A DNA stretch of 64,000 nt from Eledone cirrhosa (Eukaryota), in contig OZ024746.1 in assembly GCA_964016885.1 (NCBI GenBank), positions 75,082,001 through 75,146,000 on the forward strand, read 5' to 3'. The notes beneath the pieces were generated by a model. It did no database searches, was not told the origin of the DNA, and was given only the letters and a program-made list of their open reading frames with translations. The position numbers and the translations under genes are program-made. Each line of letters opens with the position of its first letter. Positions within the stretch are counted from its first letter, which is position 1. Shown in pieces: positions 3,085 through 59,632 of this stretch.

Positions 3085-4190
3085 CTGTGTTTATATCTTT
3101 TAAACTGGCAGTTCCACAGAAAGAGGTTGATGAAGTAAGTAACAGGCTTGCAGAGATATGTACTGGGGACGATATGATCGATTAAATCCCTTAAAGACAT
3201 TGTCACAGTCTAATAAAAGAAACCAGTAAAGAATATATGAAATGAAACAATATAAAAGTTACGTAAAGTTTTTCTCGGGATGCTTGGTGGGAAATCCTGT
3301 GTTTAAAGAGATATTAGGAGGTTATAAATGCCAATACAAACACTTGCACCTGTTGAGTTTTACTTCAGTTTATTAATATTAAAGTAACTAATCGATTTAT
3401 CGGTTAGTTTAGTAACTGGGTGATTGTTCAACAGTTAATTGTCAAAGTTATTTCATCGCACATTTTGTGACCTTCTCAATGATTACTCTTGCTTCTCTGT
3501 GTCTCCTCTTTTAGTCTAATCTTGTTCTATTTACACCATCTTCTTTGTGTCTTAGAAGGTCTAACTTCTATTTAGCCACAAGACGCCCGCGACTGCTCAA
3601 CTGCATCAGTAACAGCAGAATCTTCACAGTATCAAGATAAATGCCTGCTGATGGCAATACCGTAACACCATTGATAATGAAATTGCAGCAAATGTTTAAA
3701 TTTTAAACTAAATCTGCCGTCTGATATATTAAAGACGGTTGCAGTCCATTAGATTATGATTTTTCCTGGGATTTTCTTCATGTTGCCTTCTGTATGAAGT
3801 TCACGCGTTATCTATGCTTTTTTTTTTTCTTTTCGCACTCTTTTCAAAAACACATAATTAACCAATTGAGATTGAAATAACTAATTCATTTTAGTTATCA
3901 TGTGGAGTTAATCGAGCTAATTCTGATAAATTAAATCATATTTCTATCGGGAAAATACTACAATGATAAATAAACGATACTCACACACATATATATAAAT
4001 ACGTACACACAATTCATATATAATATATATGTAAATATATACGTCAATCCGAGGTTTACTTTGCCTTTCATGCTTACGGGGACGATAAAATAAAGTACCA
4101 GTAATGTACTGTGTAATTGCTGGCCTTGTGCCAAAAGTAGAAACAATTATTTCTGTAATGTACTGGGTAATTGTGCCAAAAGTGGAAACA

Positions 4191-7790: not shown

Positions 7791-8112
7791 GCTTTACTCA
7801 AATCATTGACTGGCAATTGACTTCTGAATAAACTGTATTTTTATCGACTCCCGAACACTCTCTAACCTTGATACTAGGAGGGTGTCACAAAAGAGATAAG
7901 AGTGCCTGTTGCAAACGGCTTGGATATTGAGAATGGTTCTGGACTACCAGGAATAGTGAAATGACAAGAAAGGATATGAAAACGTTGGAGTTACTCTAGG
8001 CTACCAGTTGTAACCCGGTATTCCTTAAAATAACCGACCCAAACGCAACAACAAAATTGGTTGTGATAAATAGTCAAATAACAATGAAATAGATATTGTT
8101 CAATAAACTTAC

Positions 8113-8389
8113 TGTATTTTCCTCCATAAATCTTACGGTTGCAGTCATCATATTCGCTACCCGGGGAGACACAAACCTGTTGTGATTGAGAAAACACTGT
8201 GCCTCTACCACATGCTAATGGGTAGGGAAACATGGCGTTGCATAAGTAGAATTCACTGCAATTATTTGGTGATCGCATATAAGATGACCCTGGTCGTATT
8301 TCTGTGTTCCTACACAGAGTCATGATATCTTGACTATAGACTGCTGTCACTGCAAGAAATAGAACGATGGCGGCAACACGAAACTCCAT
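8113..8389 (-). CDS. CBM14/peritrophin-A chitin-binding protein paralog 1, coding exon 1 (signal peptide + domain 1)
   Basis: ATG at 8389. MEFRVAAIVLFLAVTAVYS is a hydrophobic signal peptide, followed by a six-Cys domain with CBM14 spacing (C26, C44, C50, C60, C73, C83; CGRGTVFS). Ends TAC A|GTAAGT, a phase-1 donor at 8112. Confidence 0.92.
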
Positions 8390-8510
8390 TCTTATTGTAT
8401 TTTATCAACTGTGAAATCAAAGGAGAGTTAAAACAAATTACTTGCAATGAATCTACCACTACTCGATTGCAACCTTGGTATGTGTGAATCTGTTGCTTTA
8501 AAGTAGTCTC

Positions 8511-10032: not shown

Positions 10033-10203
<171 letters not shown>

Positions 10204-10353
10204 ATACTTTGGGAGGGTCATGTTGCCAATAAGAAACACACGCACCAGTTGCTTTCACTTCAATTTATTATATACTTATAAATTTACAAATTTATAAATT
10301 TATAAATTTCTGGTTGGTTGATTGGTTCCACAACCAGATAGTTGTTTATATAT

Positions 10354-10398
10354 AGTCATAGTCCTTTCGTCACACACTCTGTGATCTCTTCAGTGACT
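10354..10398 (-). ncRNA. Hammerhead ribozyme copy (one stem II mismatch)
   Basis: Reverse complement of the 12888 motif, with atcac in place of gtcac. Confidence 0.65.
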
Positions 10399-10610
10399 GG
10401 GGATTCCTTTCTTTGTTTCTGTGCCTTTCCTTTGTTCTGTCCTACGCCATTTTGTTTCTGTGTGTGTGTTGTGTGCCCAGTTTGCGCATGCGCCACATCC
10501 GGGTGTCTGTGTGTGTTTATGTTCATTTATCTATTTGTTTATTTATTTATTTATTTACATGTTATTGGTTGGTTGTTTGTTCTATGTGTGTGTGTGTTTT
10601 CATTTTGTCC

Positions 10611-12803
10611 TTAATTGTAAGTTGTGATGTTGCTGTTCCACTCATATTTTCTATTTAATTTTGGTTGTAATTCTTTTATGTTTATTGCCTCTGTAATTTG
10701 TCTAAACATTGCATCTTTTCTGTGTGTAGATTCTATTTTTATTTCTGTTCTCTAATTTACCCTTGTGTTCTATCTTAGCATGTTGGTAGAGCACAGATGA
10801 TTCTTTATTATCTTGAAGGTCTCGCCAGTGTTCATTTATCCGTTCCCCTATACTACGAGCTGTCTCACCTATGTACACTATATTTTTGTTTCTACATTGT
10901 CCTTCAGTACATCTTATGCTATACACTACATTTCTAGTTTTACAGTTAATATGGGGGCTTATTTTACAGGTTATACATTTCTTATCTATACATGAGGGTC
11001 TTTGAAAAGGGTATGTCTTGCTAATAAGTGTTTTTACGGAGGTACCTGGTCTTTCTACTATCTTAATATTGAGTTTATGTTTATTTAGGGCCCTTCTAAA
11101 TTTGTAGGCTAGTTCGCCTCTAGGGGTTGTATCGATGAACATTACACTCTGGTATTTATTGCTATCATACCATGAGTTTATTCTATTAGCCTTGTTCCTA
11201 GTTCTTTCTATTCTATTCCAAAATTTGCTCCTATACAAGGGGCAGGTCCCATTTATGTCATTATTTACCATTTTTTCCCATTTGGTTCTGGCTCCTCTAT
11301 ACACTCTGATTCTATCTGTCTGATTGTAGCCAGAGAACTGCATACGGTGGATGAAGTGTTGTATGTGTCTCTCTAGTTCTTCGGGGTTGCACATGCGGGA
11401 CACATTTCTCATCACCCGTACCAAATCCGCAATCAGTATGTTGATTTTGGTATGGTCCGAAATGGCCGAGTTTCGGTAGATCAGATGTTTGGAAGTCATG
11501 GGTTTGGCATAATGGGAATGGAGGATTTGTTTTTGGTTGTTAATGGTATCTAACCAGAGCTCTGTGTCTAGTACAGGTAATCGATGGTTGGGGTCTCTAC
11601 TTGGGTAGTCTATAGTAACTCTAATGCTCTGGTGGATGGAGTTTGCTATTTGCTGGATGCTTTCCATTGTGTTTTTCTCTAGTTCCTGACTGTTCTCTAG
11701 TGGGGGTGTCTTAACTACGATGTTTATATCATCTACGTAGCGGGAGTACATTATCAGGGTTAAGCTGTCATCTAATTGTTCTTTAAGTTTAAGTTTAAGT
11801 CTACTGTCCCACCATACCATGAATAAGTTAGCTATGTCGCCTGCAATGCTAACACCAATGGCTGCTCCTTCCTCTTGGGCATATGTTTTTCATTAAATTT
11901 GAACATATGTTCCTTAAGGGTTAGTTTTATGCTGGCCCCTACCGCATGTGCAATCATTTTCTTCAGTTCATCGTGGTTTTCGGGTGTCCGTATGGCTCTG
12001 GTCCACCCGTTCCATCTATCTGTGTGGGTTTTCTTGGCCATTGAGGTAATGGTAGGTGGTCTGCCTCTTGCTGGTCTTGTAGGGCACAGGTTGCTAAGGT
12101 CATATGTGTCTAGGTAACTATTACTATAGGTAAGCTTAAGTAGAAGTCCCAGCTCACTGGTATCAATCCCACGGAACTCAACCTTGCTCTCGCTGATCAT
12201 TTCTACGCATTTCTCCACAGCAAAATCCACGTCAATAGATGGATACAGGGACACAACATCCATACTGCCTATTATGCAGTTTGTCAGGTCCCCAGATCGG
12301 TTACTCACGCCGATTCTGCTGAGGAGGTCCTCCGTGCTGTCACATACATCTGGGGACATTTCAATGATGGGGCGTATGATCAGGGAGAGGAAGTAGGACA
12401 GTCTGTAGTTACTAGCAATGTTAGCTCCACAGACTGGCCGTGTTGGTGGTCCCGCGACAGGGTCACAGCCCGTTTTATGGTCTTTTCGAAGCCCATACGA
12501 CGCCGGCACGTCATTGTTCCATGTCTGGAAGTTGTTGGCAGTCCTTTTGTTGGGCTGCATTATATTCGTCCACATCACCATATGGGCATTGAGGGCTTTT
12601 TCTCTATCCTCATGCTCTTGTGGTGTTACCTCTCTTGTGTTAGTGATGTGGGGTTGCATTGCCTGGATGTAGTTTGGCAGGCTGTCAACCGACATTCTGC
12701 CAGACTTGTCTGTTGGAAAGCATGCTATCTCTCCATTACGTGAGCGCTGCATGAGCTTACGCAAGCCATTTGCAGATTTTTCTCCCAGTTGCTGGGCCTC
12801 CAT
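10611..12803 (-). pseudogene. PLE reverse transcriptase-GIY-YIG endonuclease ORF with two frameshifts
   Basis: Motifs PTDKSG, TRPVCGA, GSMDVVSLYPSID, GAAIG, RYVDD, LPVLD, CxxxxCxxC, NVVYSIRC, YIGETARSIGERINEH. Frameshifts near 11888 (A-run) and near 10748; the restored C-terminus ends RQITEAINI...LNRKYEWNSNITTYN*. Confidence 0.88.
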
Positions 12804-12887
12804 TCAGAGGCAAAATGGCGTAGGACAGAAACAAAATGGCGTAAGACAGAACAAAGGAAAGGCACAGAAACAAAGAAAGGAATCCCC

Positions 12888-12932
12888 AGTCACTGAAGAG
12901 GTCACAGAGTGTGTGACGAAAGGACTATGACT
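12888..12932 (+). ncRNA. Minimal type I hammerhead ribozyme in PLE pseudo-LTR
   Basis: agtca-CTGAAGA-g-gtcaca..tgtgac-GAAA-ggac-TA-tgact; stems I and II pair. Confidence 0.75.
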
Positions 12933-13136
12933 ATATATAAACAACTATCTGGTTGTGGAACCAACCAACCAACCAGAAATTTATAAATTTGTAAATTTAT
13001 AAGTATATAATAAATTGAAGTGAAAGCAACTGGTGCGTGTGTTTCTTATTGGCAACATGACCCTCCCAAAGTATAACAATATCGGTTTCAACACACGATT
13101 TCAGATAAAGAATCTTGCTAAACAAATTCAGAAACG

Positions 13137-13171
<35 letters not shown>

Positions 13172-16189: not shown

Positions 16190-17995
16190 TGTGGATGAGG
16201 AGGGGTCAGAGGGATGGGGGAGGAGGGGAGAGGATTCCGGAGGCTGAGTGTGTATATATGTGGGGGTACGCACGTGTGTGTGGTGTTTATACGTATTGTA
16301 GATGTAGGTGGCGTGGTTCGAAAAAAAATGTTTGTGAGTGTATGTCCGTGGGTAAGTTCCTAAGGTAGTTCCGTAGAAGGTGTAGTGAGCTGCCGGATAT
16401 TTTCCTTGTGATGGACTTGATGGTGGGAACGATGGCCAATGGTGTGTAATCCGTGGTTGTGTTGGTCGGAAGAGGGGAGATGTGGGGTGCGCGCGCAACA
16501 GGAAGTGGTCAGAGGGTAAAGGCAGGTGGAGGGTAGAGGAGAATGACAGGTGGAGAGGGCTGTGTGTCTGTGTGTGCGGAGATGTCGTCAGAGGGTCAAG
16601 GCATAGCAGCAGTAGAGGAGAATGGCAGGTGGAGAAAGTCAGTGTGTCAGTGTGTGCGGAGAACAGGGGTGAGGATGGGTAGGTGTGAAAGGTGGAGTGA
16701 GGAGGGGGTCGCGCGGGGGAACGGGGTGTGTATTAGTAGAGGTGTTAGTGGGATGTGTGTGTGTGTGTGTGTGAAGGGGTGTGGGTGGAGCAGGGAGAGG
16801 GATAGATAGGTGTGGGGGACGGTGAGGGAGTGTAGTGTACTGGTGTGTGTGTGTGGTGAAGGGGGTGTTAGTGGAAGTCCATAGACTACTGGTGGTGGGG
16901 AAAGGGTTTAATGCGGGTGTCTTAGTGAGGGTCAGTGGTGGTAGGGTGTGTAGAGTGATGGTGTAAGTGGGTGTGGAGGGGGGGGTTGTGTGCGTGGGGT
17001 CGGGGGATAATAGTGGTATTAGTTGTGGGGTGGTGGGAGTGGATGTGTGGGTGAGGGTTAGTGGTGGTAGTAGGGTGTGTCGATAGTGTGAGTACGTGTA
17101 TATATGTACCGGTGGGTGTGTGCGTGATAAGGGGAGGGGGATGTTAGTATTATTAGTTGGGGGTGGGGGGTTAGTATTGTTAGTTGTGGGGTGGGCGGTG
17201 AAAAGGAGGAGTGTGTTAGTGGTGTTAGTGGGGGATATGGGGGGGAAAGGCGGTCGAAGGCTAAAGGAATAGGCTGGGGAGTTCAAGCCGGGGGGAGTGT
17301 GGGTCTGTAGGGTGAAGATGGTGCGTTGTTCGACCCTGAGACGGGTGGCGGGTGTTCCGTGGCATTAGAGTAGGCCACAGACTGTTAGGTGGTGCGCGGA
17401 ATGTCCAGGGGAGCCAAAATGGCTGGCGATGGGGGAACTCCCGCCGAGACGAATATCCCGAAGGTGTTCGGTGAAACGGTCCGCCAGGCGACGTCCAGTC
17501 TGTCCGACGTAGATTGCGCTGAACTCCGTGCAGCGAAGTCCATAGACTAGATTGGAGGAGGTGCAGCGGAAGGCGTGCCGGACAGAGAGAGAGTGGCCGT
17601 TGGGACCCTGGAAGGTGGTGGTGTTGGTGATGTGGGGGCAGGTGTTGCAACGAGGCCTGGAACAGGAAAGGGAGCCGGGGGGTTGGGGGTAGGGAGCTGC
17701 GGACGAGGAGGGTGCGGAGATTGCGTGCGCGTTTGAAGGAGGGGAGTGGTGGGGATGGGAAAATATGGGAGGTGGAGGGGTCGGACTGGAGGCGTCGGAA
17801 GAGGCGGAGGATGGTGCAGTGGAGGGGTAGGGTGGAGGGGTGGTAGGTGATGGGGAAGGGGAGACGGTGGGTGGGTGTGCGGTGGTGTGGGGTGAGGGTA
17901 GTGGAGCGGTGGACAGCACGGGCGCGAGTGAGGACGAGGGGGGAGGGAGAGGGTAACCTCTGCGGATGAAATGGCTGACTAGGGAAAGGGCCTGG

Positions 17996-17996
<1 letters not shown>
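16190..17996 (-). mobile_element. Neptune-like PLE fragment (GIY-YIG region and very G-rich 3' region), abutting (TA)n
   Basis: CSRPRCNTCPHI...FRCTSSNLVYGLRC...IYVGQTGRRLADRFTEHLRDI at ~17270-17670; frameshifted upstream thumb and linker residues (HFIRRGYP). Confidence 0.8.
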
Positions 17997-18076
<80 letters not shown>

Positions 18077-26630: not shown

Positions 26631-26709
<79 letters not shown>

Positions 26710-26714
<5 letters not shown>

Positions 26715-27034
26715 TTGCAATTCTTTATATGAAATCGTGTGTCGAATCAAATATTGTTATACTTGGGGAGGGTCATATTGTTATAATATTGCCAGAAATA
26801 ATACCAGAATACACTCACTGTTTGGTTTGGGTTGGTTTTCGCTTCTGTATCTTTTATATCGCCATAGTTAATTTATCTGGCAATCAATGTTTATCATTGA
26901 TTGACCAACAGTTAGAAATACAGATATAAATATATATATAGTCTATCAAAGTTCTTTCGTCACACATCTGTGACATCATCAGTGGTACTATTATGTTTCC
27001 TCCCGTTGTATTGTAATGCCTACGCCATTTTGAT

Positions 27035-27066
<32 letters not shown>

Positions 27067-27363
27067 TTCTTGCCTCTGTCTCTGTTTGCGCATGCGTTTG
27101 CTTGTGTGTTCCATGTTTGCTGTGTGTGTTCGTGTTTCAGTATATGTGTTTTTGTTTTTTGTATTCTATCTTTGTTCACTGGTGTGTATTTATATGTGTT
27201 TGTTGTTATTGTACTTGTGTATATATTACTTTATTTATATTTCCCTTATGTCAGCATTGTTTGTTTAGGTATGATTGTTGTTATTCCATTCGTTGTTTCT
27301 GTTTAACTTAGGTTTTCTTAGTTCTATCTCAGTTGCTTCTCTGATTTGCCTACCTGACCTAAG

Positions 27364-28964: not shown

Positions 28965-30108
28965 AAGAAAAAACAAAAACAAAAAAAACAATAACAAAGA
29001 GTGCAGTACGAATAGTGTGATGTTATTTTCACGCGTGATAGTGAGGGGGTGGGGGACGACGTTTCGAGCATAATCCCTTCATCAGCAGAAAAGTGGGAAG
29101 GAAAAGAATTCCGAGGGTGTGAGGAAAAAATTAAAAGGAAGACGGGTTAGGGACGTTTGTAGGGTTATTTTAAATCCCCAGTCGCGGAAGAAGCTGATTA
29201 ATTGTTTACGGACCTGGTCTGTACTACTGGGGTTGTACCCTTTAAGGGTAAGGAGCCCATCACCACGGTACAATCCACCGCCGAATACAGGAAACATATC
29301 GGTGAATTTAACTAGTAGGAATAATCCTATAAGATCTGTAGGATTATTCCTACTAGTTAAACTCACCGATATGTTTCCTGCATTCGGCGGTGGATTGTAC
29401 CGTGATGATGGGCTCCTTACCCTTAAAGGGTACAACCCCAGTAGTACTGATCGGGTCCGTAAACAATTAATCAGCTTCTTCCGCGACTGGGGATTTAAAA
29501 TAACCCTACAAACGTCCCTAACCCGAGTAAACTTCCTGGACGTTACCCTTGACATCGATAATGAACTGTACTACCCATACAGGAAACCAAACGATAACCT
29601 GCACTACATCCACCGACGGTCAAACCATCCTAGAAACATCACCAATAACCTGGTTAAAAACATCTCCCTCCTCATATCTCGTTTGTCCATTAATGAGCAG
29701 ATATTGGAGGAACATGCGCCTTACTACAACCAAGCCCTCAGGCGGAGTGGCTTCCGGGAGGAAATATCCTACTGTCCAGCTTCCATTAGTGGAACCAGCA
29801 GGCGACACCGCCGCTCACGCAACGTAACATGGTTCAATACTCCCCACAACGCCGAGGTGACAACACCTACGGGAAAATCTTCTTTAGGCTCATCGAAAAA
29901 CACTTCCCACTACAACACCGCTACCACAACATAATCAACAAAAATATCATCAAACTCTCCTACAGCACCACACCTAACTTTGCACAAAACATCGTCTCCT
30001 CTAACAACAAAAAACTCAACCCCTATGGAAGAAATAACCTAGATAGCAGTGGAGAGCCGACCAGGAGGTGTAACTGTCCTGTTGTAACAATATATATATA
30101 TGTAAAAC

Positions 30109-30171
<63 letters not shown>

Positions 30172-30420
30172 TTAATTTTAATTTTTTTCTTCCTTTTAAT
30201 TTTTTTTCCTTACTTTTAATTTTTTCCCCTTTTGTAATGTCTTTCCACCACTCCCCTCACACCCTCGAAACTCTTTTCTTTCCCACTATTCTGCTGATGA
30301 AGGGCTTATGCCCGAAACGTCGTCCGCCACCTCCCACTCTCAAGCGTGAACCTAACACCACACTATTCATACTGCACTCTTTGTTATTGTTTTTGTTTTT
30401 TTCTTTTTTCTTAAAAAAAA
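28965..30420 (+). mobile_element. Second PLE family: truncated RT with 5' inversion and inverted pseudo-LTRs
   Basis: GLYRDDGL, VNFLDVTLD, YRKPN..YIHRRSNHP motifs on + (29340-30080). 29144-29335 is an inverted copy of 29342-29525. The pLTR at 30170-30420 is mirrored at 28965-29140. Confidence 0.85.
30294..30321 (+). ncRNA. Penelope-type minimal hammerhead core (inverted copy at ~29059-29085)
   Basis: CTGATGA-a-gggc-ttat-gccc-GAAA-cg-TC; stem I pairing is weak. Confidence 0.55.
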
Positions 30421-30458
30421 AAATATATATATATATATACATATATATATTTATATAT

Positions 30459-30491
<33 letters not shown>

Positions 30492-30520
30492 TATATATAT
30501 TTATATATATACATATATAC

Positions 30521-30554
<34 letters not shown>

Positions 30555-30555
30555 T

Positions 30556-31058
30556 TCGTTTCTGAATTTGTTTAGCAAGATTCTTTATCTGAAATCGTGT
30601 GTTGAAACCGATATTGTTATACTTTGGGAGGGTCATGTTGCCAATAAGAAACACACGCACCAGTTGCTTTCACTTCAATTTATTATATATTTATAAATTT
30701 ATAAATTTATAAATTTCTGGTTGGTTGGTTGGTTCCACAACCAGATAGTTGTTTATATATAGTCATAGTTCTTTCGTCACACACTCTGTGACCTCTTCAG
30801 TGACTGGGGACCCCCCTCCCTGTCTCCGCGTCTCGCCCCCGCCCTGTCCCACGCCACCCTGATCTGCGTGTGTGCTGTGCGCCCAGTCCGCGCACGCGCC
30901 ACATCCGGGCGCCCGTGTGTGCCCATGTTCATTTATTTATCTGTCCACCCACATGTCACTGGTTGGCTGTCCGCCCCATGTGTGTGTGTGCCTTCACCTG
31001 TCCCTTCAACCTTCAACTGTAAGCTGCGATGTTGCCGCCCCACTCATACCCTCCATTT
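30556..31058 (-). mobile_element. Solo PLE 3' end/pseudo-LTR of the 10198-13140 family; part 30806-31058 is A-to-G hypermutated
   Basis: 30556-30805 matches sister copies almost exactly. 30806-31058 aligns to 10399-10657 with dense T-to-C changes on the + strand. Confidence 0.9.
30761..30805 (-). ncRNA. Hammerhead ribozyme (PLE)
   Basis: agtca-CTGAAGA-g-gtcaca..tgtgac-GAAA-gaac-TA-tgact. Confidence 0.7.
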
Positions 31059-31121
31059 ATATATATTAGAAAGTGAACACAAAGTATAACTACTCCATTT
31101 CAGAGAAGTTAACTATACCTT

Positions 31122-31194
31122 CTCTGTCTGACGACCGATCCAGACGTGTATTATATTATTATCGTCTGTGATTCAGAAACCTTTGGTAATGGAG
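31122..31194 (+). ncRNA. Hammerhead ribozyme-like motif
   Basis: ctctgt-CTGACGA-..cagacg..cgtctg..-GAAA-cc ttt gg-TA-atggag. Confidence 0.55.
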
Positions 31195-59068: not shown

Positions 59069-59134
<66 letters not shown>

Positions 59135-59136
<2 letters not shown>

Positions 59137-59632
59137 TGTTATACTTTGGGAGGGTCATGTAGCCAATAAGAAACACACGCACCAGTTGCTTTCACTTCAA
59201 TTTATTATATATTTATAAATTTATAAATTTACAAATCTACAAATTTATAAATTTCTGGTTGGTTGGTTGGTTCCACAACCAGATAGTTGTTTATATATAG
59301 TCATAGTCCTTTCGTCACACACTCTGTGACCTCTTCAGTGACTGGGGATTCCTTTCTTTGTTTCTGTGCCTTTCCTTTCTTCTGTCCTACGCCATTTTGT
59401 TTCTGTGTGTGTGTTGTGTGCTCAGTTTGCGCATGCGCCACATCCGGGTGTCTGTTTGTGTTCATTTATCTATTTGTTTATTTATTTACATGTTGTTGGT
59501 TGGTTGTTTGTTCTATGTGTGTGTGTGTTTTCATTTTGTCCTTAATTGTAAGTTGTGATGTTGCTGTTCCACTCATATTTTTATATGTTCCACTCATATT
59601 TTATATGTTCCACTCATATTTTATATGTTCCA

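Follow-up and report, generated by a model that had tools for sequence, protein, structure and literature searches.

Sharp-edged A-to-G hypermutation beside a hammerhead motif in a Penelope-like element of Eledone cirrhosa, and edited copies as candidate records of single RNA molecules

A Penelope-like element (PLE) copy in the 64,000-nucleotide stretch of Eledone cirrhosa DNA analysed here (hereafter the window) carries a dense tract of A-to-G changes that ends sharply beside a hammerhead ribozyme motif. Because most other edited copies in the genome run into or through this motif, the stop beside it is likely incidental, and a boundary set by the ribozyme is not the rule in this family. The valuable part of the boundary observation is that the edits act as barcodes for the PLE replication intermediate: the pattern of each edited copy is unique to one RNA molecule, and thus one can read from the genome which strand served as template, whether the ribozyme was already cut, and whether the arms of an insertion have a common origin. 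RNA edits enter heritable DNA at a measurable rate, with at least 34 events set against the 8,113 exact matches that one family 35-mer has in the 3-Gb genome.

The copy, from a young element, is 5'-truncated and lies on the minus strand at 30556..31059, as delimited by alignment to the three sister copies in the window (10190-12803, 12804-13140 and 59130-59620). It comprises the ORF end, the 3' UTR or pseudo-LTR, the ribozyme and a tail, and its site is (TA)n, with the target microsatellite at 30424..30555 on its 3' side and a short TA run at its 5' junction (31060-31066). Signed coordinates below count from the predicted hammerhead cut, which separates window 30766 from 30765, and follow the element (minus) strand. 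The minimal type I hammerhead motif, at 30761..30805 (-), was identified by motif scan and predicted fold, its self-cleavage being predicted, and has a conserved core (30800-30794), stem I (30805-30801 with 30765-30761), stem II (30792-30776) and a minimal stem III. Stems I and II appear in the predicted fold, which is weak (z -1.15 and -0.33), and no Rfam family, hammerhead included, reached its gathering score anywhere in the window. From the cut site to the first 3' end of the family (about +164, placed from sister 3' ends) the copy holds an unedited stretch that includes an ORF start (30611..30760, -), and a tail of about 55 nt (30556..30610, -) reaches the second, at about +219; the family has these two 3' ends, about 55 nt apart.

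Compared with 31 unedited arms of the same subfamily, 58 of the 120 adenosines from the copy's 5' end to -46 (window 30811) read as G and 62 are unchanged, the tract running from about -286 to -46 (30811..31054, -; T-to-C on the plus strand). None of the 15 adenosines inside the ribozyme (-45..-1) is changed (Fisher p=1.4e-4), nor is any of the 99 from -45 to the 3' end of the copy (p=1.7e-19), which bears out the sequence-only reading that 30556-30805 is unedited and that dense changes start near stem I. The last edit lies 6 nt from that stem. With the site-specific rates of other edited copies, an absence of edits has a probability of 0.016 by -32 and of 0.0016 by -31; thus the edge lies between -46 and about -32, some 45 nt from the cut and not at it. 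Such dense, one-directional A-to-G change on one strand (58/120, versus three other listed differences from the subfamily, plus an 8-nt insertion) is the form that ADAR hyperediting takes, and the A>G background in unselected copies is 124/33,758. A 375-nt short-read contig (run X2, depth 4.5, possibly the assembly's own sample) matches 30781-31130 without a difference and reproduces both the edited tract and its join; run X2 covers the edited part, and runs X5, X6 and X7 have no coverage there.

To place this edge among others, the genome was searched with markers that forced edits at two sites, located in the ORF, in the 3' UTR, just upstream of the ribozyme, inside it, and downstream. Of 39 candidate events scored, 34 with at least five edits after masking of subfamily sites were kept (L061, L068, L125, L129 and L134 fell below five). 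The sample is small and marker-gathered, with ORF edges under-sampled. Eight of nine matches to the downstream marker proved to be an older subfamily with a fixed G, which is why its sites were masked, and a further marker search returned 87 matches, largely of the older subfamily in the 30 plus a few more loci examined. A marker for antisense edits had no match in the genome, and 80 unselected loci, chosen on an unedited ribozyme, held no hyperedited copy.

The sequence-only reading had proposed that the ribozyme fold or its cleavage defines the edge, and mapping edges against the cleavage site across edited copies speaks against this. Among events edited at -100..-46, 18/22 are also edited within the ribozyme (13/17 without events also found by the ribozyme marker); 14/34 edited tracts cross the cut site, and core or cut-site adenosines are altered in 19/34. 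The 3' ends of the 27 tracts found by upstream markers, the set used for the rate test, span -441 to +145, with four at stem I (-55..-31) where 5.0 were expected. Per 100 nt at risk, tract ends number 0.34 (-473..-101), 0.64 (-100..-56), 0.93 (-55..-31), 1.34 (-30..-1), 0.73 (+1..+50), 3.47 (+51..+100) and 2.22 (+101..+164): the rate is raised across the whole pseudo-LTR (1.16 for -100..+164 vs 0.34 upstream, p=0.01), with no peak at stem I and no cluster at the cut. The tail is unedited throughout, at 0/459 adenosines in 21 edited events.

I infer that the enzyme was ADAR. With 26 marker-selected arms pooled, the edit rate by 5' neighbour is 0.33 for T, 0.30 for A, 0.18 for C and 0.13 for G, and is highest, at 0.35, with a 3' G; ADARs disfavour a 5' G and prefer a 3' G, and both the depletion and the preference are present here. 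Furthermore, L043, L067, L069, L130 and L133 each combine A>G in one arm with T>C in the inverted arm, which is A>G along one continuous strand. The edited tract matches the paired part in L043 (edits 18/79 and 13/59 in the two arms), L133 (21/62 and 18/54) and L130, which is edited only at +114..+163 with a partner arm at +111..+170; confinement of edits to double-stranded RNA is seen in the fold-back copies L043, L130, L133 and L225. Because its four loci share flanking DNA, the L130 junction travels inside a larger unit, and editing is absent from one of these loci and light at another, while the patterns at the other two overlap but differ. At L223-L226, four loci on as many contigs, one small PLE hairpin sits within a larger repeated unit, and its editing, whether none, light or heavy, stays within the paired arms. 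An RNA hairpin is needed to explain fold-back copies, and the paired arms of head-to-head insertions are the likely source of double-stranded RNA. Such insertions are frequent, with 29 pairs among 80 unselected loci, which makes their fold-back transcripts the likely substrate of ADAR. The window itself holds an unedited head-to-head sister insertion (10190..13140; long arm -, ending at +164; short arm +, ending at +219), whose transcripts would fold back, as well as an unedited short sister copy (59130..59620, -).

The suggestion that editing might serve as a natural tag for the PLE intermediate has proved fruitful. Edited arms overlap in 11 head-to-head insertions. All of these read A>G on the sense strand in either arm, and in total 322 edited sites are common to the two arms against 30 unshared, whereas the overlap between separate events has a median Jaccard index of 0.34 and a maximum of 0.81 (189 pairs). 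No overlapping pair among the edited head-to-head pairs had one arm edited and the other clean. Among the unselected pairs, 23 have both ends at a start site, and 22 of these divide the two sites between their arms, +164 for one arm and +219 for the other (p=6e-6); the remaining six had an arm ending elsewhere. The longer arm has no tail in 4/11 edited pairs (L060, L064, L078 and L138), which a single cDNA folding back cannot explain. Two primings on one sense, uncut RNA would be the simplest reading of the inverted insertions, given the sense-strand edits, the sites shared by the arms, and the use of both 3' ends, with the caveat that conversion between arms after insertion could also cause shared edits. 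In these arm comparisons the tandem-repeat block at +45..+99 was masked, and the convergent copies L047/L048 (G000:C2, 10 kb apart), whose identical edit pattern is probably due to local duplication, were counted once and left out of the twin count.

Taken more broadly, and with chances that I would put at about even, ADAR scars may be barcodes of single RNA molecules that solve how PLEs come to insert head to head. On this reading, both target strands are primed by a dimeric enzyme on one sense RNA that is still uncut, each at its own tail site; the resulting palindromes yield hairpin RNAs, which undergo editing and move anew; and at times, as in L069 and possibly the window copy, the enzyme switches template where an RNA has its 5' end, just upstream of the ribozyme. 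The 5' ends of arms lie at -112..-83 in 22/95, at -60..-24 in 10/95, and within 10 nt of the cut in 1/95, counts for which one arm per locus had to span -45..-11. Together with the tracts that cross the cut, these ends suggest templates starting upstream of an uncut ribozyme, although a religated circle is a possible template instead.

The 5'-end pile-ups at -112..-83 and -60..-24 occur family-wide (L002, L004, L007, L013, L028, L159, L166, L175, L178 and others), suggesting RNA starts. Near -93 lies what I take to be a YY1-like motif, and near -135 an NRF1-like palindrome; both would presumably fit a promoter at about -100. At L142 and L146 (events L098 and L076), the short arm ends about 40-55 nt short of the point where editing of the long arm begins (-378 vs -434; -159 vs -196), as if one reverse transcriptase had stalled at a duplex edge; L094 misfits this pattern (-191 vs -441).

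What, then, placed the edge of the window copy beside stem I? The explanation I favour, with slightly better than even confidence, is that the changes were made by ADAR on double-stranded sense RNA before reverse transcription, and that the edge is where an antisense partner stopped pairing, a chance duplex end. The partner would probably have been the inverted arm of a fold-back transcript from a head-to-head insertion, or an annealed antisense transcript. The region from the ribozyme to the two reverse transcription start sites may have been unpaired or protein-bound, as a start by the enzyme would require; reverse transcription would have begun at the +219 site, passed the uncut ribozyme, with inosine read as G, and ended around -290. 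One weakness of this explanation is that editing of a simple fold-back RNA would be expected to extend as far as +164, another that L069 is a true chimera with its edge at nearly the same place. It is weakened, too, by the source locus and the pairing partner not being found (a genome search for an unedited source with the edited copy's two private changes returned only the edited copy itself), by a discordant marker in L074, and by the small sample. In 6 of the 18 unbiased partner arms the 5' end falls within -42..-24, which also counts against a chance duplex end; such ends would be expected if some RNAs begin, or reverse transcription stalls, there.

The main rival is a template switch, in which the enzyme started on an unedited RNA with its 5' end just upstream of the ribozyme and then jumped by homology to an edited RNA of the same subfamily, a reading that I regard as tenable but distinctly less probable. 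The case for it is made by L069 (fold-back edited copy, event at L087:3379-4122), whose sense arm is edited at 21/50 sites above -50 and 1/78 below, while the partner strand is edited at 28/55 in the part where the sense arm is clean. The edited part carries the markers of one old lineage and the clean part those of another; this copy is thus joined between about -69 and -36, 5' of the ribozyme, by template switch or later conversion. The sequence-only reading had offered a chimera of two templates joined near the cleavage site, and it stands in so far as L069 is chimeric; its join is off the cut site, and the window copy is of one lineage on both sides of its edge. As L069 is a lineage chimera, a switch may have occurred in the window copy as well, and the abruptness of its edge (0/88) and the arm 5' ends at -60..-24 would agree with this. 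However, lineage markers also agree on both sides in 5/6 other young copies with edges between -76 and -5, the exception being one discordant marker in the young copy L074. Furthermore, linkage of the upstream markers with the -5 allele is nearly complete across 75 unedited arms, so a change from one lineage to another at that point is rare, and there is no excess of edges at stem I. Edges near -46 are common to both arms of the twin insertions L138, L078 and L045, and thus can be properties of the RNA.

Gene conversion or recombination after insertion, in which a fully edited copy had its 3' part overwritten by that of an unedited sister, had more than 8,000 near-identical donors to draw on, is in keeping with the mosaic haplotypes of the family, and could also account for L069. 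I nevertheless think it improbable, since conversion would not regularly yield a tail unedited in all 21 events that have one, or twin arms that share their edges. About as improbable, and if anything slightly more so, is that the hammerhead fold or cleavage fixed the duplex edge, or that a circular RNA was joined at the cut site. The 6-nt distance from stem I, the ends of L069, L074 and L138 within -51..-31, and the raised rate of tract ends across the pseudo-LTR are in its favour; set against these are the tracts that enter the ribozyme, cross the cut and alter the core, the lack of surplus ends at stem I, the single arm 5' end near the cut, the weak fold, and the dispensability of cleavage in vitro for an anole PLE according to the accessible text of PMC11167929. 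Finally, a sequencing or assembly artefact, or deamination of DNA rather than editing of RNA, is very improbable: ADAR can act on DNA in RNA:DNA hybrids of model substrates (PMC12925331, in the part available), but the X2 contig is identical to the assembly, first-strand cDNA editing would read T>C on the sense strand where single and twin copies read A>G, and fold-back copies require an RNA hairpin.

As to the identity of the element, a full unit at L082 measures 4,423 nt and encodes a single 1,329-aa frame with a reverse transcriptase as well as a GIY-YIG domain at the C terminus, as in endonuclease-bearing (EN+) PLEs. The domain scores (RVT_1 E=2e-4, GIY-YIG E=4e-4) are both under the Pfam gathering score, and the whole L082 protein had no match at E<=0.001. 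The translation contains the CCHH arrangement (two cysteines between GIY and YIG, plus histidines) by which the accessible text of PMC8557442 defines EN+ PLEs. Tandem 4,423-nt units and the frequent head-to-head pairs described above give the tandem or inverted pseudo-LTR structure with optional tail. Judged from its translation and flanks, the family appears Neptune-like, because a C-x4-C-xx-C linker precedes the endonuclease (the Neptune trait being CX2-5CxxC) and because (TA)n flanks its copies, microsatellite targeting being a further Neptune trait. The ORF also has a long in-frame asparagine-rich segment (L082:5880-6440), which resembles those of rotifer PLEs as described in the available part of PMC3846280.

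The closest precedent for the edits is ADAR hypermutation of avian retroviruses (PMC12925331), in which, from the text available, about half of the A in a region with an inverted repeat became G and were fixed by reverse transcription. Unlike those viruses, the carrier here is an endogenous PLE with at least 34 separate inherited events, and its marks report on the integration mechanism. The LTR retrotransposons edited by APOBEC (Knisbacher and Levanon, PMC4866542) are alike, as far as the accessible text goes, in having clustered, strand-biased, one-directional changes in single genomic copies; they differ in that the changes are G-to-A on cDNA of vertebrate LTR elements, whereas those of this non-LTR-type PLE are A-to-G on the sense strand. 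In the same part of that study, 19 invertebrate genomes served as a negative control. The literature searched, with most subscription journals and supplements outside it, held no account of ADAR-edited, germline-fixed PLE copies, and the part of a bioRxiv retrozyme preprint (10.64898/2026.07.22.740005) that was available contained nothing on templates or editing.

Formation of tandem and inverted PLE structures is named as an open problem in the available portions of PMC8557442 and PMC3846280. For the PAc Poseidon PLE in vitro (Frangieh et al. 2024, PMC11167929), the accessible text describes two adjacent internal start sites defining the tail, cutting and extension of both DNA strands, a predicted dimer, and no need for ribozyme cleavage, all of which resemble the present family. 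The two internal reverse transcription start sites of the anole PLE in that source correspond to the +164 and +219 ends here, and the reading of two primings fits its dimer and two-strand extension. That text gives no strand difference in start site, whereas here 22/23 pairs use one site each and share the edits of one RNA. This split, together with edits common to both arms, is in-vivo-style evidence for two primings on one molecule. Self-priming of an antisense template (Arkhipova et al. 2013, PMC3846280, in the part available) accounts for the same palindromic structure, but is disfavoured because all 11 twins are A>G on the sense strand and 4/11 longer arms have no tail. The motif itself, known here from its sequence, resembles the minimal hammerheads that metazoan PLEs carry (Cervera and de la Pena 2014, PMC4209133) in that stem I is short, stem II is longer and has an unpaired 5' base, stem III is minimal, and the location is the pseudo-LTR; no difference from them was found in the accessible text of that paper.

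Several further features of the window deserve mention. Adjoining the edited copy at 29020-30420 is a palindromic insertion of a second PLE family with hammerhead-like motifs of its own at 30294 (+) and 29085 (-). Older relatives of the same pseudo-LTR as that of the edited copy lie at 26700-27350 (-), which retains the hammerhead core and stem II, and at 3260-3550 (-). A C-rich PLE fragment at 16200-18000 (-), with a GIY-YIG frame, was considered as a second hypermutated copy and rejected, as it belongs to a naturally C-rich family and has 89-93% identity to 39 near-full-length sisters with no one-way bias. Lastly, a frame at 7991-8401 (-) has a signal-peptide-like start and a cysteine pattern, which I take to resemble that of a chitin-binding peritrophin domain.
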